From an uncultured Nitrososphaerales archaeon (GTDB taxonomy: Archaea > Thermoproteota > Nitrososphaeria > Nitrososphaerales > Gagatemarchaeaceae): 64,000 nucleotides of DNA. Made by a program: the position numbers and the translations under genes. Shown one piece after another: positions 39,231 through 55,178 of the stretch; the stretch's first letter is position 1; each line of letters begins with the position of its first letter. Under the pieces are notes generated by a model that was given only the letters and a program-made list of their open reading frames with translations, did no database searches and was not told the origin of the DNA. The stretch covers positions 96,001 through 160,000 of the forward strand of contig OY970160.1 of assembly GCA_963706445.1 (NCBI GenBank), given 5' to 3'.

Positions 39231-41018
39231 TTGCCAGTCAAAGGGAAAATCGTGTGGATCTCCGGGCCCGCCGTCAAGGCCTCTGGCATGGCTGCCTCAA
39301 AGATGTACGAGGTCACACAGGTAGGAGAAGAGAAGCTCGTCGGCGAAGTCATCAAGCTCACGGGTGACATAGCGTTCGTGCAGGTCTACGAATCGACTTC
39401 AGGGCTCAGACCAGGAGAGCCGGTTTTCGGGACAGGGCAACCCCTTTCCACAACATTGGGCCCAGGGATGATAGGGACCATTTACGACGGCCTGCAGAGG
39501 CCCCTGGACGTCATCGCCCAGAAGACTGGAGCTTTCATCACGAGGGGAGTAACAGCCAATTCAATCTCCTTCGAAAAGGAATGGGAATTCGTCCCGGCTG
39601 TGAAGAATGGGGACGAGATAGAAGGAGGGACGATCATTGGCTCAGTCCAGGAGACCCCACTCATCGACCACAAAATCCTCGTGCCGCCGACGGCTCCGAA
39701 GTCGAAGGTCAAGGATGTGGTCAAGGGAGGAAAGTTCAGGGTGGACGAGGTCGTCGCCACGACTGAAGACAAGTCGGGCAAGAAGCAGGAGCTCAAGCTC
39801 TACCACCGATGGCCGGTTCGGACGCCAAGGCCAATCCGCGAAAGGCTCGACCCTGAGATACCGCTGCTCACCGGGCAGAGGGTCCTGGACACATTCTTCC
39901 CGATGTCGAAGGGCGGGACCGGGTCCATCCCAGGTGCCTTCGGCACAGGCAAGACAGTTACCCTACATTCTGTGGCAAAATATGCAGACGCGAAGGTCGT
40001 CTTTCACATAGGCTGCGGCGAGCGCGGAAACGAGATGACCGAGGTCCTGGTCGAATTCCCCGAGCTGATCGACCCCCAGAGCGGCAGGCCCCTGATGGAG
40101 AGGACGATCCTGGTGGCCAACGTCAGCAACATGCCCGTAGCAGCTAGGGAGGCGAGCATATACACCGGCGTGACCATGGCGGAATACTACAGGGACATGG
40201 GGTACGACACGGTCCTCGTGGCAGACTCGACGAGCAGGTGGGCCGAAGCGCTTCGTGAAATCAGCGGAAGATTGGAGGAGATGCCGGCAGAGGAAGGTTA
40301 CCCGTCATACCTCGCATCAAGGCTCGCCGAGTTCTACGAGAGGGCGGGGAGGGTCGACGTGAATGGAACCCCGGCAAGGACAGGTTCCATCACCCTGATC
40401 GGAGCCGTCTCTCCTGCAGGGGGGGACTTCACCGAGCCGGTAACTTCACAGACCATCCGATTCGTCAAGAACTTTTGGGCCCTGGATGCCCGCCTCGCTT
40501 ACTCCCGACACTATCCTTCGATCAACTGGATGACCTCCTACTCGGGTTACGTCGATTCAGTCAGTAAGTGGTGGGCCGAGAGGATAGACAAGGATTGGCT
40601 TTCGACGAGGGCCGAGGCCTACAGCATCCTTCAGCGCGAAGACGCCCTCAAGGAAATCGTCCGACTCTTGGGTCCAGAGGCGCTCCCCGATGAAGAGAAG
40701 CTCATCCTCGACGTCGCCAGGATGATACAGATCGGCTTCCTCCAGCAGAACGCCTACGACGACACTGACGCCTACTGCAGCCCTCAGAAGCAGTTCATCA
40801 TGTTGAAGATGTTCGTCCAGTACCACCAAGAGGCTTTGAAGGCGCTCAGGAACGGCACCCCCCTCGCCAAGATCAGGGGGATGCAGGTGATCGCTCCAAT
40901 GCTCAGGGCGAAGTTCGCGATTAAGAGCGAGGAACTGGGGAAGCTCGAATCTCTATCAAAGCATATGTTCGACGAGTTCTCATCCATCTCTGCGGTCCAG
41001 GAGGTAAGGGCTGCATGA
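39231..41018 (+). CDS. atpA: A/V-type ATP synthase subunit A
   Basis: GAFGTGKT P-loop, [16 protein letters not shown]; no intein. Confidence 0.97.
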
Positions 41019-42427
41019 GCAGGTCGTCTTCCGGCCTCGAATACAGCAAGGTGGCCGAGATCAGGGGTCCGCTCCTCGTGGTAGACGGGGTAGAAAGGGC
41101 TGCCTTCGACGAGCTCGTCGAAATCGAAGATAACTCGGGGAACAAGAGGCTCGCAAGGGTCCTCGAGACAGGGTTCGGCAAGGCAGTGGTACAGGTCTTC
41201 GAGGGGACGTCCGGGCTCTCGGTCAGCGGCACCAGGGCCCGCTTCCTTGGGAAAACCATGGAGCTCCCAGTTTCAGATCAGCTGCTGGGGAGGGTCTTCG
41301 ACGGCCTCGGCAGGCCCCAGGACGGGCTTCCCGAGCCGGTGGCCAAGACGTTCCTCGACGTGAACGGGGCGCCAATCAACCCCGAGAGGCGCGAGTATCC
41401 CACCGACCTCATCCAGACGGGGGTCTCCGTCATCGACGGCATGCTCACGCTGGTCAGGGGTCAGAAGCTCCCAATCTTCTCAGGCGCAGGGATGCCCCAC
41501 AACATGCTTGCGGCCCAGATTGCCAGGCAGGCGACCGTGGTCGGGGAGGGGGAGGAGTTCGCCGTGGTGTTCGCAGCCGTCGGTGTCTCCCACAGCGACG
41601 CATCCTTCTTCCAGAGGACCCTGGCCGAGTCCGGGGCCATCAGGCGGAGCATCCTGTACCTCAACCTGGCGGACGACCCAGCCATCGAGAGGATAATCAC
41701 ACCGAGAGTCGCGCTGACTGCGGCCGAGTATCTCGCCTTCGAGCTGGGAATGCACGTGCTCGTGATAATCACTGACATCACCAACTATGCCGAGGCGCTC
41801 AGGGAGATTTCAGCGGCCAGGGAAGAGGTCCCCGGGAGGAAGGGGTTCCCCGGCTACCTCTACACTGACCTCGCCACCAACTACGAGAGGGCGGGGAGGA
41901 TCAAGGGGAAGAAGGGGAGCATCACTCAGATGCCGATACTTTCGATGCCCAGCGACGACGTCACCCATCCAATCCCCGACCTAACAGGCTACATCACCGA
42001 GGGGCAGATCTTCCTGGGGAGGGACCTCTTCAGGAAGGGGATCTACCCACCTGTGTACGTACTCTCCAGCCTCAGTAGGCTCATGGGCCCGGCCCTGGGC
42101 TACGTCATCAAGCAGGGGAAGGCCCGCCCCGACCACCATATGGTGGGGAGCCAGCTCTACAACGCCTATGCCAGAGCTGTCGAACTTAGGGCCCTCGCTG
42201 AGATCGTCGGCAAGTCCGGCCTCACGGGCTCGGACCTGAAGTACCTGCAGTTCGGGGACGAGTTCGAGCAGAAGTTCCTGAACCAGGGGTACGACGAGAA
42301 CAGGACCTTCGAGGACACCCACCGCATCGCCTGGGAGACACTATCTATCCTCCCCGAGAGCGAGCTGACGAACATCAAGGAAGAGTTCATCAAAGAGAAT
42401 TACATCAAAGGGAAGTCGACCGGGTAA
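41015..42427 (+). CDS. atpB: A/V-type ATP synthase subunit B
   Basis: [41 protein letters not shown]. Confidence 0.97.
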
Positions 42428-42429
42428 AG

Positions 42430-43071
42430 ATGTCCGTAGCTTCAGGCGGAAACGTACTCCCGACCAAGATCGAGCTCATCGGGACCAGGAGAAGGCTTGC
42501 CACCGCTGTAAGGGTCAAGAAGGTCCTCGACGACAAGAGGGACGTCCTCCTAAAGCGCCTCGACGAGATGATCGAGCAGGCGACGGTCGCCCGGGACGAG
42601 ATATCTCAGCCTCTGTCCGACGCTTACCTGGCGTTGTACGACGCCTACCTGAAGCTAGGACCCCTGCGCCTCGAGGGGATTGCAGCAAACACTCCGCCGA
42701 TGGTAGCAGCAGACATCAGCGTGAGGAGGATCGTCGACGTCGACATCCCTTCAGTGAAACTATCCGAGAAAGACGTCGGGATGACCTACGGCTTCGCTGA
42801 CAGCAACGTCGCGGTCGACCGGGCGTCCAGGCAGATGAGGAAGGTCCTCCCCTCGATATTCCGGGCCGCGGAGTTCGAGAACGCCATCTTCCGTCTCGCG
42901 AAGGAGCTGGAGAAGACCCAGAGGCTCCTCAACGCCCTCGAGTACATGATAATCCCCCGCTACGAGGGCTCCATCCGCTTCATCCAGGCCACCCTCGAGG
43001 AGAGGGAAAGGGAGGAGTTCTCAAGGCTTAAGCACGTCAAGAAGGTGCTGGAGAGGAAGGCAGCGGCATGA
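42430..43071 (+). CDS. atpD: A/V-type ATP synthase subunit D
   Basis: PTKIEL, KTQR..NALEY..IP, LEEREREEF.RLK. Confidence 0.95.
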   Translation: MSVASGGNVLPTKIELIGTRRRLATAVRVKKVLDDKRDVLLKRLDEMIEQATVARDEISQPLSDAYLALYDAYLKLGPLRLEGIAANTPPMVAADISVRRIVDVDIPSVKLSEKDVGMTYGFADSNVAVDRASRQMRKVLPSIFRAAEFENAIFRLAKELEKTQRLLNALEYMIIPRYEGSIRFIQATLEEREREEFSRLKHVKKVLERKAAA

Positions 43072-43490: not shown

Positions 43491-45791
43491 TCACTCGCAC
43501 TTGGAGTAGCCACAATTTGAGCAATGGTAGCAACCATTCTCAAAGATCAGCGTACTCTCATGGCAGTCCGGGCATGTCCCACCAAGGGACTTTGGGTTCC
43601 CCTCAGTCGGGAACCTTGCCTCCTTCACCACGTTGTTCAGGGTCAGGAGTTCTAGGGCCTTCGCTATGGCGTCAGGTATTGACTGCAGCTGGGTCCCTTC
43701 GTCCCAGGAGACGTACTTCCCCTTGATCCCCTTGAGGGTCGAGACGACGCTCTTGATGTCCCCGCCGTGCTGGAGGTAGAGGCTGATCAGCCTCCCGAGT
43801 GCCTCTGCGTCCGCTTTCTCGTCCCCTCCTGACTTGCCCAGGGTCACGAAGACCTCCTTCAGCTCCCCGTTGTCCAGGTTGGCCGTAAGGTACAGCCCTC
43901 CCTGGGGGAGCTTCAGCTTGATTGTCTTCCCATCCATCATCTTGGGTCTTTCGAAGGTCGTCTTCGGGGCCTCGGCCTTCTTTGCCACCTTCTCCGTCTC
44001 GAGGATCCCCTCCCTGCTCCCTTCCCTGTAGACGGTGATGCCTTTGCACCCCAGCTTCCAGGCGAGCATGTAGATCTTCTCCACCTCCTCCGGGGTTATC
44101 TCCTCTGGGAGGTTGACCGTGCTCGAGATGGCCGTGTCGATGTGCTTCTGGATGGTCGCCTGCATCTTCACCCTCATCTCAGGCCTGATCTGGTGGGACG
44201 TCACGAAGTAGTTCGGGACCTCCGTCTCGCTCTTCGCCCCCGTGGCGCCCATGTACTCCCTCACCAGGGGGTGGAAGACCTTGAACTCCCCTTCGCTGAG
44301 GGACTTGCTCCTCCTCGTATAGTAGAGGGCGAACACAGGCTCGACTCCGCTGCTGGTCCCGGCAAGGATCGACCCCGACCCGACGGGCGGGATCGTGGTA
44401 ATGGCCGCATTGCGGATCCCTTGGGTGCGTATCTTCTCCTTCACCTTCTCGTCCAGTCTCGCGATGAAAGGCTGTGCCAGGTGCTTCTCGGCGTCGAAGG
44501 CAGGGAAGCTCCCCTTCTCCTTCGCCAACTCGGTGGAGTAGTCGTAGATGAGGTTCTTGATCCTCTCGAAGAGGTGGTCTACGAAGCCGATGGTGGAGTC
44601 TTCATCGTACTTCAGCCCCAGCTTGATCAGCATGTCCCCGAGGCCTGTGATCCCCACCCCTATCCTCCTGCTGTGGAGGGAGGCGTCCTTCTGCTGGTGG
44701 AGCGGGTGCCTCTCGGCATTGTAGTCGAGGACGTTGTCAAGGAACCTGACCCCGTACTGGGTCGCCCTGGTGAGGGAGTCCCAGTCGATGCTCGCCCTTT
44801 CGGTGAACGGGTCTTTCACGAAGGCGCTCAGGTTCACCGAACCCAGGCAGCAGCACCCGTAGCTCTCCAGGGTCTGCTCGCTGCAGGGGTTGACCCCCTG
44901 GACTTCCATCCCGTTGTACTCTGTGGTGGAGTCGCGCTTGATGCTATCCCAGAACAGTACCCCCGGCTCGGCGGACTGCCACGCCCCCTTGATGAGGGAC
45001 TTCCACACGTCCCTGGCCCTTACGGTACGGCTCACCTCCACCTTCTCGTTCTTGAAGCGGAGCTGGAAGTCTTCGTCGCTCTCGACCGCCCTCATGAAGT
45101 CGTCGGATATCTTCACCGAGATGTTGGCGTAGTTGACCTTCTTCAGGTCCTTCTTGACGTTGATGAAGTCCATCACGTCTGGGTGGTCGACCTTTATGGT
45201 GATCATGAGCGCACCCCTTCTCCCCGCTTGGCCGATGGTGCCCGTCGTTGTCGAGAGTAGCTCCATGAATGAGACGGCCCCGGAGCTGTAGATTGCCGAG
45301 TTGTTCACCGGTGCCCCCCGCGGCCTGAGCACGGAGATGTCGGTCCCTACCCCTCCTCCATAGCTGTAGGTGCGTGCCGCCTCCTTGCACCACTCGAAGA
45401 TGGCTTCTATGGAGTCTTCTTTGATCTTGAAGAAGTAGCAGTTCAGGAGCGTCGACTTCCTCGTCTGACCCGCCCCGAACAGTATCCTCCCTCCGGGGAC
45501 GAACCTGTAATCCTCGAGGAGCCAGTAGAACTTCGATGTCCATTCCTTCCTCTTCTCATCGTCCATCTCTGGCGAGGCGAGCTCTCTCGCTACCCTTCGC
45601 CACAGGTCCTCAGGGCGCTTCTCGACCTGCTTCCCCTCGGGGTCGCGCAGCGCATACTTCTCGTAGAAGACCCTCGCGCGCAGTTCATCTCCTCCGAACG
45701 CGGCGAGCGTTTCTGATGGGAGCTTTACCTCTCCAGTATCCTGCTCTCCGGCATTCGGAGAGTCACGTGGTTGTTCAACGATTGACGTCAT
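43491..45791 (-). CDS. nrdJ: class II (adenosylcobalamin-dependent) ribonucleotide reductase with C-terminal TSCPD-like domain
   Basis: FVPGGRIL, LLNCY, GRRGA, NPCSEQ, CCLGS, TTIPPVGS, KGITVYR, CSNCGYSKC; start moved to ATG 45791. Confidence 0.95.
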   Translation of the reverse strand: MTSIVEQPRDSPNAGEQDTGEVKLPSETLAAFGGDELRARVFYEKYALRDPEGKQVEKRPEDLWRRVARELASPEMDDEKRKEWTSKFYWLLEDYRFVPGGRILFGAGQTRKSTLLNCYFFKIKEDSIEAIFEWCKEAARTYSYGGGVGTDISVLRPRGAPVNNSAIYSSGAVSFMELLSTTTGTIGQAGRRGALMITIKVDHPDVMDFINVKKDLKKVNYANISVKISDDFMRAVESDEDFQLRFKNEKVEVSRTVRARDVWKSLIKGAWQSAEPGVLFWDSIKRDSTTEYNGMEVQGVNPCSEQTLESYGCCCLGSVNLSAFVKDPFTERASIDWDSLTRATQYGVRFLDNVLDYNAERHPLHQQKDASLHSRRIGVGITGLGDMLIKLGLKYDEDSTIGFVDHLFERIKNLIYDYSTELAKEKGSFPAFDAEKHLAQPFIARLDEKVKEKIRTQGIRNAAITTIPPVGSGSILAGTSSGVEPVFALYYTRRSKSLSEGEFKVFHPLVREYMGATGAKSETEVPNYFVTSHQIRPEMRVKMQATIQKHIDTAISSTVNLPEEITPEEVEKIYMLAWKLGCKGITVYREGSREGILETEKVAKKAEAPKTTFERPKMMDGKTIKLKLPQGGLYLTANLDNGELKEVFVTLGKSGGDEKADAEALGRLISLYLQHGGDIKSVVSTLKGIKGKYVSWDEGTQLQSIPDAIAKALELLTLNNVVKEARFPTEGNPKSLGGTCPDCHESTLIFENGCYHCSNCGYSKCE

Positions 45792-45816: not shown

Positions 45817-45842
45817 GAGATATATATCTCAGCCATGGCTGA
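45817..45842. promoter_or_regulatory. nrdJ TATA region with two abutting perfect 14-bp palindromes
   Basis: GAGATATATATCTC (45817-45830) and TCAGCCATGGCTGA (45829-45842). Confidence 0.55.
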
Positions 45843-45946
45843 TTCTCCGTTAACCATCAAGCGAGGACTTTCTTCACATGTCAGGATACATGAGACGACC
45901 CGCCGTGTAGTCTTGTTGACAAGAAGTGTATCCGATTAGTGGAGGG

Positions 45947-48034
45947 CTAGGCTGCTGTCGAATATTGCATCGTTGCCACGGACTTGCACCGCGGGCACCT
46001 GGCTGCGTTCTGCGGCAGCTTGGCCCCACAGTTCCTGCACACGGAGATCGTCCTGTCGACTTTGAAATACGGGAGCTTCGGAGTCGCATTCAAGATCAGG
46101 TTGTAGATCCCCCTCACTTCATCCGAAGACCCATCGAGGGTCACCGAGAGCCCTCCGTGCAGCCCCACGGACAGCTTCGAGATGTAGTCCACCTTCTCCG
46201 GGTTCTCCAGGTCCGCCAGCTGCAGCCTCGGCGCCTGGGTGTATGCCCCCTTCGCCAGGGGCTGGAGGTTCGCCTTGCCGTACTTCTCCGAGTCCTGATT
46301 CGCGAGCCGCAGGGCGCCGTCGAGGTCGAGCATCGCGACCCCGAGCCTGTCTATCTTGGTTGACTTGTCGTCGGCCACCTGGGTAGCGGTCCCCACTATC
46401 TTGTCGGCCAGGTCGAAGCGCGAAGCTGTGGTCGGGTCTCTGATTAGGCTGGCTAGGGTTTCATCCAGCCCTACCAGGTTCATGATGAGAGGCATGGTGT
46501 CAGAGGTGACCGCGTCCGACCCCGAGGCCAGGGACGGGAGCAGGCCCCGCTTCAGCGTCCTCTCGATGAGCCTCCTCCTGGTGGAGAGGGCATCGGAGGC
46601 GACCCCGATGAGAAGGGCGAGCTTAGCCCTGAAGTATGTCTCATCCTGGTTCGAATCATAGGCGAGCCTCGGGAGGTTCAGACTCAGGCCGTGCAGGACG
46701 CTAATGTTGTCCGCCTGGGATTCTTGCGAAAGGACGTTGGCGTTGAGCCCGAGGAAGCTCCTCCTCTGGTCGGATGAAAAGAAGGCTATCCTCCCACCGT
46801 TGAAGATTATCGAAGCGGCGTCCTTGATCGTCTTGGTTTCGTCTATCCTGTTGGGCTTCGCAAGCAGGAGCCTCACGTCGGGCCTCGGCGTCTCCTCCAC
46901 GTAGCTCCTGTAAGCGCCCAGTGCAGCGTCCAGTGTCTTGTCCATCACCTCTCTTGCGACGTCGTCGTGCTTGAACGGGTTTAGGTCGATGCTGATGGCT
47001 GGCCCAGAAGCCCCAGCCACCGGGGAGCCGATTGTCTCAAAGAACCTCAGCAGGAGCGACTCGAGTTCTCTCTTCCCCCTCGATTTGCAGTAAGGCCCCA
47101 GATACTGGAGGAAGTTCCTGAAAGTCACCTCGTCCGAGGCCTCGCGGGTCAGCATCGAGGCCATGTTGAGTACGATGTTCAGGGCCCTCTCGGCGTTCTC
47201 CGGGCTCGGGATCATGGAAGCGTTTGCGATCTTTCCTCTCGGATTGAACCCTGCGCTTCTAATGGAAAGCAGGTCCACGAAGACGGTGTCCGGGGTGAGC
47301 CCCCAGGACCCTGCGTTCGTGATGTGTATGTCCCCTGAGAGGTGGGCATCGGCCACGTCCCTCGGGAGCTGTTCCAGGAGGAGATATTCGGCGAAGACCT
47401 GTTTCCCCGTCTGATGGATAAGCGCCTCAACGTTCCCTCCCTCGTCCCCGGCCTTCCCAAGCAGCTGGGTCACGTCGTAGATAGGCATCCCCAGCCTCGT
47501 CAGCTTGTGCCTGTACTCCTCCATGCTATGCTCTACAAGTAGTGCGTTCACGATCTCGCGGATGAGAGGGGCCGTCAGGTACTGGGTCTGGAACTTGTAC
47601 AACCTCGATTCGGTCTCACTTGTGATCTTCTGTGCAAGCTCCACCGGCATCCCTGCTTCCTTCACCAAAGACTGGAGGATCTTGTTCGCGTTGAACTCCT
47701 CCATGGTCTGATGGGAAGTCCTCACGTAGAGCTTCCCACTCTCGACCAGGGACTGCTCCTCAATCTGTCGGGTCAGGTTCAGGACCAGTCGCCCGAGGTT
47801 GGTCACAGTGTACTTCCTTTCCTGCCTGTTGAGCTGGATGAGGAGCTGCTTCACCAACTTCCTGAGGTGGTAGGCGAATTTGCCCGACTCCTTCTTCGAC
47901 TTGAAGCCGGCGAGCGTCTTGAGGGCGCTGTACGTCAGAGGTCCTTTGATGTTCAGGATGCGGAGAATCTCAAGCCTTTGTGGAGACGCGATGACACTGT
48001 AGATCGTCTTGACCCTTCTAGGAGCTGCCTGCAA
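45947..48034 (-). CDS. ArsR-like wHTH + ATP-cone + degenerate class III RNR (NrdD-like) fusion
   Basis: RLEILRIL..SGKFAYHLRKL; VRTS...EEF...KI..SLVKEAG..TAPLIRE; P.DVADAHLSGDIHI; SLNLPRLA; Zn ribbon; no glycyl-radical motif. Confidence 0.85.
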   Translation of the reverse strand: MQAAPRRVKTIYSVIASPQRLEILRILNIKGPLTYSALKTLAGFKSKKESGKFAYHLRKLVKQLLIQLNRQERKYTVTNLGRLVLNLTRQIEEQSLVESGKLYVRTSHQTMEEFNANKILQSLVKEAGMPVELAQKITSETESRLYKFQTQYLTAPLIREIVNALLVEHSMEEYRHKLTRLGMPIYDVTQLLGKAGDEGGNVEALIHQTGKQVFAEYLLLEQLPRDVADAHLSGDIHITNAGSWGLTPDTVFVDLLSIRSAGFNPRGKIANASMIPSPENAERALNIVLNMASMLTREASDEVTFRNFLQYLGPYCKSRGKRELESLLLRFFETIGSPVAGASGPAISIDLNPFKHDDVAREVMDKTLDAALGAYRSYVEETPRPDVRLLLAKPNRIDETKTIKDAASIIFNGGRIAFFSSDQRRSFLGLNANVLSQESQADNISVLHGLSLNLPRLAYDSNQDETYFRAKLALLIGVASDALSTRRRLIERTLKRGLLPSLASGSDAVTSDTMPLIMNLVGLDETLASLIRDPTTASRFDLADKIVGTATQVADDKSTKIDRLGVAMLDLDGALRLANQDSEKYGKANLQPLAKGAYTQAPRLQLADLENPEKVDYISKLSVGLHGGLSVTLDGSSDEVRGIYNLILNATPKLPYFKVDRTISVCRNCGAKLPQNAARCPRCKSVATMQYSTAA

Positions 48035-48208
48035 CGCGACGGAAGCGTCGTCGTCAAAACTATATCAACGTATGCGCACCGTTAGTCAAAAGAAGTTTGC
48101 TAATGCAAGGCGGCAGCCCTTCCCCGGTCGCGCCCCTTTCCATCGTCCAAGCCTGGGAGCCGCTTTCGCACTCGTAGAAACATCGGAGTCGTTATCCTAG
48201 CACTCGTC

Positions 48209-48529: not shown

Positions 48530-48562
48530 AGCCTAGGATTCGCCACTGGAGATTCATGATGT

Positions 48563-48582
48563 ATGGGGTCGCCCGGATTCGA
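48563..48582. repeat. att-like duplication of tRNA-Pro 3' end (partner 55076-55095)
   Basis: ATGGGGTCGCCCGGATTCGA vs ATGGGGTCGCCCGGATTTGA, 19/20. Confidence 0.85.
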
Positions 48583-55011: not shown

Positions 55012-55076
55012 GAATCCTAATAGCCAGAATCAAGCCCCTGCAGCCAAACAGAGTTCAGTTCAACCTGTATAGAAAA

Positions 55077-55152
55077 TGGGGTCGCCCGGATTTGAACCGG
55101 GGATCTTCAGCGCCCAAGGCTGAAAGCCTAGACCAGACTAGCCGACGACCCC
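55077..55152 (-). tRNA. tRNA-Pro(TGG), intronless
   Basis: GGGGTCG/CGACCCC acceptor, TCAGC-CTTGGGC-GCTGA anticodon arm, CCCGG-TTCAAAT-CCGGG T arm. Confidence 0.95.
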
Positions 55153-55178
55153 ACAATCTCGGCGTCTCATTGGCGTAG

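Follow-up and report, generated by a model that had tools for sequence, protein, structure and literature searches.

A candidate nucleotide-sensing transcription factor with a dead class III ribonucleotide reductase as its scaffold, encoded upstream of nrdJ in a Nitrososphaerales archaeon

What becomes of a ribonucleotide reductase (RNR) that has acquired a DNA-binding domain and lost the residues of radical catalysis? The question is raised by a gene at positions 45947-48034 of the window analyzed here, a stretch of 64,000 nucleotides (nt) from an uncultured Nitrososphaerales archaeon of the family Gagatemarchaeaceae (GenBank assembly GCA_963706445.1, contig OY970160.1, positions 96,001 to 160,000). 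The gene begins with a TTG codon and encodes a protein of 695 amino acids (aa) in which a winged helix-turn-helix, an ATP-cone, a dead barrel of the class III RNR (NrdD) type and a zinc ribbon follow one another, and the next gene downstream, in the same orientation, is nrdJ, which encodes a B12-dependent class II RNR. We conclude that the protein is probably a nucleotide-sensing transcription factor for which a dead class III RNR serves as the scaffold, and for brevity we call it the regulator; that it binds DNA and nucleotides is what we infer from the parts described below. The best reading of these parts is that it is an analog of bacterial NrdR and not a relative, like NrdR in logic and built from unrelated components. 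Coordinates are those of the window, and all features given for the regulator gene, for nrdJ and for their promoters lie on its minus strand.

The start codon of the regulator is kept in at least 40 relatives, as TTG or, in four, as ATG, and among the relatives compared the sequence diverges directly 5' of it, which supports the TTG start. The winged helix-turn-helix (aa 11-85; 47780-48004) matches PF24038 (DUF7347) in Pfam with 38.3 bits at a cut-off of 27.6, scores slightly below the cut-off of 27 with PF12840 (HTH_20; 24.6 bits), and falls outside the ArsR/SmtB-type metalloregulator subfamily NF033788 (18.5 bits; cut-off 55). It carries a near-invariant helix, G-K/R-F-A-Y-H-L-R/K, and L27, H56, Y75 and G81 are invariant among 60 family members. 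The ATP-cone that follows (aa 103-174; 47513-47728; PF03477, 30.0 bits, cut-off 25.8) is a variant that begins V-R-T-S. The NrdD-type barrel (aa ~199-655; 46070-47440) matches PF13597 in two stretches, with 98.6 bits at a cut-off of 26.2, and the CxxC...CxxC zinc ribbon (aa 664-687; 45974-46045) is followed by a 12-aa tail without a glycyl-radical loop, the protein ending in MQYSTAA 12 residues past the last CxxC. An AlphaFold2 model built on the family alignment has a mean predicted local distance difference test score (pLDDT) of 88.4 and a predicted template modeling score of 0.81; in it, the winged helix is modeled as three helices and a beta hairpin (H-H-H-beta-beta, aa 6-77) at pLDDT above 90. 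When the model was compared with the PDB by Foldseek, the best matches were all class III RNRs, from S. thermophilus, T. maritima, P. copri and phage T4 (9d3x, 4coj, 8p2s and 1h79), with E-values of 3e-21 to 1e-14 and target-normalized template modeling scores of 0.58-0.69.

Catalytic residues were located in an alignment with E. coli NrdD (NC_000913) and three true archaeal NrdDs found beside relatives of the regulator gene. The columns of E. coli C384, the site of the thiyl radical, and of C175 hold no cysteine in the regulator, which has Leu and Thr-region residues there, and the column of the radical glycine, G681, is empty. Cysteine at the first two columns and glycine at the third are absent from all 18 members aligned, drawn from ~16 taxonomic families, and the finger-loop cysteine, the second cysteine and the radical glycine are likewise absent from 60 representatives of clusters formed at 50% identity. 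Retained are the four ribbon cysteines (C666, C669, C680 and C683, in at least 90% of members), several barrel glycines and the NLPR motif, whose N453 aligns with E. coli N412. With the NCBIfam equivalog model for NrdD, TIGR02487, the regulator scores 87 bits against a cut-off of 326.35. Judged from its predicted structure and these residues, the barrel is an NrdD fold without radical chemistry. A few family members end in an RxxGY-like tail, and we considered whether these could be intermediates in which an active enzyme already carried the helix-turn-helix; none of them retains the finger-loop cysteine, so this was rejected and catalysis was probably lost first, with the tail eroding later.

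The host genome, a single contig of 1.82 Mb that is 95% complete, contains no match to the NrdD activase NrdG (TIGR02491), and its matches to TIGR02495 are sub-threshold radical S-adenosylmethionine proteins only, in frames of 381-560 aa. The regulator is the sole match to PF13597 in this genome and holds its sole ATP-cone, and NrdR (TIGR00244) has no match in the regulator or elsewhere in the genome. The only RNR found, and the only PF02867 protein, is NrdJ (43491-45791; TIGR02504, 556 bits, cut-off 400), which has the RNR lgN, RNR lgC and TSCPD domains and no ATP-cone match in Pfam. Homology in more distant relatives begins at residue 22-24 of the long nrdJ open reading frame (ORF), and its start codon is thus probably the ATG at 45791 and not the TTG at 45860. 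A preliminary description of this DNA, made from its letters and translated ORFs, had read from them the domain order of an ArsR-like winged helix, ATP-cone, NrdD-like barrel and CxxC ribbon, a position upstream of a co-oriented nrdJ lacking an ATP-cone, and the loss of the glycyl-radical loop, the catalytic cysteines and any nrdG in the window. Pfam and, for nrdJ, NCBIfam agree on the architecture and the arrangement, the predicted structure, a check that the description had called for, has the NrdD fold, the residues are missing from the 18 and 60 members alike, and NrdG is wanting over the cut-off not only in the window but in the whole genome.

The regulator belongs to a large and widespread family. 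More than 4,400 homologs share words with it in a protein collection clustered at 90% identity, 210 clusters at 50% identity match it with E < 1e-30, and the species-representative genomes contain at least nearly 600 matching stretches. Among 401 genomes sampled from the phylum, 291 encode a member; so do all 59 that were sampled from the same order and all 22 good-quality genomes of the host's own family. The source names of relatives are of two kinds, 'anaerobic ribonucleoside-triphosphate reductase' and 'ArsR family transcriptional regulator', the first much as the preliminary description had foreseen in expecting automated labeling as an anaerobic RNR. A FastTree phylogeny of the shared region, with four true archaeal NrdDs and an E. 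coli outgroup for comparison, placed the 60 representatives as monophyletic with respect to the true NrdDs (support 0.997, with a thinly sampled outgroup), and the Nitrososphaerales clade lies nested and on a long branch within it. Deep-branching members have a post-ribbon tail of 38-40 aa that is a recognizable, decayed glycyl-radical domain, of which a few read RxxGY-like, and the proteins of the Nitrososphaerales clade stop 7-23 aa past the ribbon.

Conservation is unevenly spread along the protein. In comparison with members less than 35% identical overall, the ATP-cone is the best-conserved domain (54% identity), followed by the winged helix and the initial stretch of the barrel (32% each), the C-terminal barrel (21%) and, least conserved, the middle barrel with the finger-loop region (12%), which is shortened by deletions in the Nitrososphaerales clade. 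Selection thus falls chiefly on those regions whose expected roles are DNA binding, nucleotide binding and dimerization. Five shorter members (P0222, P0228, P0232, P0235 and P0239; 526-650 aa) match well only over aa 10-245 and have no zinc ribbon; the match of these short proteins to the winged helix, ATP-cone and linker suggests that the functional core is made up of the N-terminal 250 aa.

In NrdR of S. coelicolor, V48, K50, R51, E56, F58 and K62 contact the nucleotide or support such contacts (PMC9110341), and the equivalent residues of the regulator are V104, T106, S107, E112, F114 and K118. The adenine-reading Glu and Phe and the second Lys are thus retained, and an invariant R105 stands one position before the place of the missing K-R pair (T106-S107). 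The V-R-T-S start is common to the true archaeal NrdDs that adjoin relatives of the regulator and is therefore an inherited variant, not a decay of dead copies. From these residues, nucleotide binding by the ATP-cone of the regulator is plausible. NrdR itself is reported to be rare in archaea (PMC9110341), and among the 401 sampled genomes of the phylum it was found over the cut-off in 24, all within one family (f15). Stand-alone ATP-cone ORFs of ~95-115 aa also occur in several families of the phylum (e.g., G128:C2:2435-2662 and G017:C8:152392-152613), and their similarity to the NrdR model is confined to its ATP-cone half.

The company that the regulator gene keeps was followed across lineages. 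Among 44 loci of the host's own family, 42 have a co-oriented nrdJ directly after the regulator gene, one has it convergent and one ends at a contig edge; the co-oriented arrangement is also that of 27 of 29 loci in a Nitrosopumilaceae-like family (f2). The nrdJ of these latter loci (L010-L038) starts with a canonical ATP-cone (K-R-x-G...F...K-I) and that of the host has none, so the regulator gene is kept upstream of nrdJ whether or not nrdJ bears this domain. Twenty loci from other families are more varied: nrdJ is downstream in three, and a true nrdD is adjacent in three, which belong to two families. Most of the remaining loci have a convergent pyrB or pyrI that faces the 3' end of the regulator gene, an arrangement of the deep-branching relatives (L039-L057), and at L039 and L040 an amino-acid-kinase-family gene of UMP-kinase size (pyrH-like) lies directly upstream; the pyrB arrangement was found at all six loci sampled in f15. 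The common theme of these neighbors is nucleotide supply, RNR genes of two classes included. A conserved linkage with RNR genes, on which the preliminary description had staked its proposal, thus holds for nrdJ in two Nitrososphaerales families and for true nrdD in other lineages.

Candidate operator boxes were sought in 39 genomes of the host's own family, in the 150 nt preceding the regulator gene and in the spacer between it and nrdJ. GTCAA/TTGAC is the sole 5-mer present in both regions of all 39 genomes, the runner-up being present in 23. Against a genome background of 0.31 per 150 nt, it reaches 1.46 per 150 nt before the regulator gene and 2.36 per 168 nt in the spacer, and TTGAC is not a common feature upstream of start codons generally in the host genome. 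In the promoter of the regulator gene, a TTTTGAC box named R1 lies upstream of the TATA-like box, at 48085-48091 (~-55; TTGAC at -66 to -48 in 19 of 39), and a second, R2, lies between the TATA-like box and the start codon, at 48053-48059 (~-23; at -27 to -18 in 28 of 39). The TATA-like box (48060-48068) reads TTGATATAG in the host and GTTAAATAC in most relatives, and its center is ~29 nt before the start codon, a spacing which suggests that the regulator mRNA is leaderless. Outside this promoter, no non-coding DNA of the genome has two TTTTGAC within 120 nt.

The spacer contains two further boxes. J1 (45905-45922) has the form TGTCAA-N6-half-site, with the consensus TGTCAA-AAAGAG-TTCACA in relatives, and its GTCAA lies ~-128 from the nrdJ start (-135 to -121, 28 of 39). 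J2 (45849-45855), ~25 nt upstream of the nrdJ TATA, has its GTCAA at ~-63 (-70 to -58, 18 of 39) and mostly reads TTGTCAAC in relatives. The nrdJ TATA region, GAGATATATATCTC, occupies 45817-45830, ~30 nt before the ATG at 45791. An inverted repeat, GT[CT]AA-N5-7-TT[GC]A[ACT], is present in the spacer at 23 of 39 loci in f1, the host's own family, and at 17 of 29 in the Nitrosopumilaceae-like f2, against a genome-wide rate of 0.007 per 160 nt, and the recognition helix of the Nitrosopumilaceae-like proteins is nearly identical to that of the host regulator. R1 and J1 are flanked by ACTTCTT in the host subclade, a combination found nowhere else in non-coding DNA of the genome, and at three distant loci a GTCAA lies ~30 nt upstream of the TATA of a true nrdD. 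Taken as aligned sequence, the conserved boxes are phylogenetic footprints among kin.

Several other candidates were set aside. A further pair of TTTTGAC within 120 nt lies in a small coding region read as ribosomal protein S28e and was taken as chance, and three further ACTTCTT-plus-box sites are all in coding DNA; scans of the host genome for TTTTGAC pairs and for ACTTCTT-flanked boxes found no additional regulon targets. As for palindromes, TCAGCCATGGCTGA is not conserved as such, relatives reading AGCCAAG..., and GAGATATATATCTC is mainly the TATA box of nrdJ; among the candidate palindromes only the near-palindrome TCTTGTCAACAAGA overlaps a conserved box, J1. A spacer block at 45888-45897, CGTCTCATGT, is kept across the family and is unlike the TTGAC boxes. 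In the Nitrosopumilaceae-like family, both promoters contain arrays of GATCA/TGATC (L010-L038; e.g., AAACTGATCAAAAA) at densities of 3.8 upstream of the regulator gene and 1.9 in the spacer per 150 nt, compared with 0.32 in coding DNA; given the near-identical recognition helix, these may be variant half-sites or the sites of another factor.

Taken together, the parts suggest how the regulator might work. It would dimerize as NrdD does, so as to present two winged helices to TTGAC half-sites, and would bind (deoxy)ribonucleoside triphosphates through the ATP-cone and perhaps also through remnants of the effector or substrate sites of NrdD, with nucleotide load setting its binding to the TTGAC boxes. 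Archaeal repressors typically act at boxes between the TATA box and the start of the gene, and R2, in that position, would mediate autorepression; transcription of nrdJ would be tuned, by activation or repression, from the boxes that precede its TATA. Family members in other lineages probably have nrdD or pyrimidine genes as their targets. A bolder extension, which we regard as possible and advance tentatively, is that the dead barrel still binds nucleotides at its old effector and substrate sites in addition to the ATP-cone, reading both the level and the balance of deoxyribonucleotides into transcription, and that the family is an ancestral, general regulator of RNR and nucleotide metabolism in much of the Archaea, in the place of NrdR.

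A number of observations weigh against reading the regulator as a nucleotide-dependent factor for RNR genes. The phosphate-contacting Lys-Arg pair of NrdR is absent from its ATP-cone, which has V-R-T-S instead of V-x-K-R-D-G, and sensing of ATP versus dATP by such a variant is, from its sequence, not assured. At the promoters, the right half of J1 has decayed to TACAC in the host and J2 reads GGTTAAC there (GTTAAC, not GTCAA); the relatives in which boxes were counted are kin, so the counts overstate independence, and in distant lineages the DNA preceding the regulator gene shows no enrichment of TTGAC (0.5 per 160 nt). No RNR gene lies within 5 kb in 14 of the 20 diverse loci. Within f15, moreover, NrdR is present in 24 of 25 genomes and the regulator family in all 25; therefore neither simply replaces the other, and a complementary distribution of the two is not supported. 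The name 'archaeal NrdR analogue' given in the preliminary description accordingly fits the linkage to RNR genes in some lineages and is too narrow for the family, given its pyrB, pyrI and pyrH neighbors elsewhere and its co-occurrence with NrdR in f15.

The same observations bear on what else the protein could be. It might be a transcription factor with broader targets in nucleotide (pyrimidine) metabolism or replication, the nrdJ linkage being a lineage-specific arrangement of Nitrososphaerales. The convergent pyrB or pyrI and the upstream pyrH-like kinase of many deep lineages favor this, as does f15, where true NrdR co-occurs and the regulator gene adjoins pyrB. Convergent orientation says little on control, however, RNR genes of two classes are repeatedly its neighbors in lineages apart from one another, and in the host the non-coding box pair is confined to the regulator promoter and the ACTTCTT-flanked boxes to the two promoters of this locus; we consider such broader targeting unlikely. 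Rather less probable is a partnership at the protein level, in which NrdJ, having no ATP-cone, would be served in trans by that of the regulator and the winged helix would make protein contacts or have a secondary role. The adjacency of the two genes and the fact that the regulator has the only ATP-cone of the genome would fit this arrangement, but the Nitrosopumilaceae-like nrdJ has a canonical ATP-cone of its own and the regulator gene is nevertheless kept, in the same position. The near-invariance of the recognition helix across the phylum and the conserved boxes in both promoters argue against it too, and we know of no precedent for a heterocomplex of class II and class III RNRs.

Two further explanations leave the barrel an enzyme. 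GlyXL, a distant relative of NrdD in which the catalytic residues are absent, functions aerobically and without radicals in glycine synthesis (PMC13759103), and because it is a component of a non-radical enzyme, the fold alone would leave the regulator room for a residual enzymatic role; the conserved NLPR motif and barrel glycines would suit such chemistry. In Pfam, however, the barrel matches only PF13597 (E up to 0.1), the own model of GlyXL not having been identified. The poor conservation of the middle barrel, with its finger loop and the pocket region, and the deletions there in the host clade, the complete loss of the C-terminal part in some relatives and the invariant fusion of winged helix to ATP-cone all speak against catalysis, and we give a GlyXL-like function about as little credence as the in-trans partnership, if anything slightly less. 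That the protein is a working anaerobic RNR, as many database records name it on the strength of the PF13597 match, is a reading with a negligible chance of being right: the radical glycine, the thiyl cysteine and the second cysteine are all missing, no activase was found in the genome, and the score is far below the equivalog cut-off. On this sequence evidence it is already refuted.

The reading we prefer, a nucleotide-sensing transcription factor made from a dead NrdD, can be set beside known systems. NrdR (TIGR00244; ~150 aa) likewise joins a DNA-binding domain to an ATP-cone, its gene is linked to RNR genes with candidate boxes in the RNR and its own promoters, and by analogy the same logic, from nucleotide load to DNA binding, would be expected. 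Its DNA-binding domain is a zinc ribbon, whereas that of the regulator is an unrelated winged helix; the regulator in addition carries the whole dead barrel in its 695 aa, lacks the K-R pair in its ATP-cone, and is associated with TTGAC-type boxes unlike NrdR boxes. With NrdD (PF13597/TIGR02487) the regulator shares fold and clear common descent, the NLPR motif, the C-terminal four-cysteine ribbon, a V-R-T-S-type ATP-cone at the N-terminus as in neighboring true archaeal NrdDs and, in its deep-branching members, the decayed glycyl-radical tail. It differs in having neither the radical glycine, the thiyl and second cysteines nor an activase, in the added winged helix, in the shortened finger-loop region of the host clade and in falling below the equivalog cut-off. 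Enzyme scaffolds kept as ligand sensors after catalysis was lost or side-lined are represented by pseudoenzyme sensors such as yeast Gal3, a dead galactokinase, and by PyrR; unlike these, the regulator would combine sensor and DNA-binding domain in one polypeptide, and its scaffold is that of a radical enzyme. GlyXL resembles the regulator in its NrdD-related barrel without catalytic residues, but it is part of an enzyme, pairs with an ACT-domain protein and has neither winged helix nor ATP-cone. No ACT-domain gene was seen among the Pfam-identified neighbors of the regulator gene, which are nrdJ and ATP-synthase genes, or in the two upstream ORFs tested, which had no Pfam match.

Control of RNR genes in archaea is largely unknown, and most of the genomes sampled from the phylum encode a member of the regulator family, those of globally abundant ammonia oxidizers included. 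A literature search, which did not cover all journals, found no description of a winged-helix/ATP-cone/dead-NrdD protein or of an RNR regulator in these archaea. If the proposal is right, a radical enzyme has been recycled into a ligand-sensing transcription factor, with intermediates of its decay visible in living lineages. Thousands of database entries for such proteins bear the name 'anaerobic ribonucleotide reductase', which misleadingly implies an anaerobic capacity in aerobic archaea.

The surroundings of the locus add minor observations. Subunits B and D of an A-type ATP synthase are encoded on the plus strand at 41015-43071, convergent with nrdJ, and are unrelated to the regulator. Many relatives have a tRNA gene whose end lies ~70 nt before the regulator gene. 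The host tRNA-Pro(TGG) lies instead at 55076-55153, 7 kb from the regulator gene, and only a copy of its 3' end remains at ~48556-48575; DNA has therefore been inserted just upstream of the regulator promoter, and the insertion left both TTTTGAC boxes intact.

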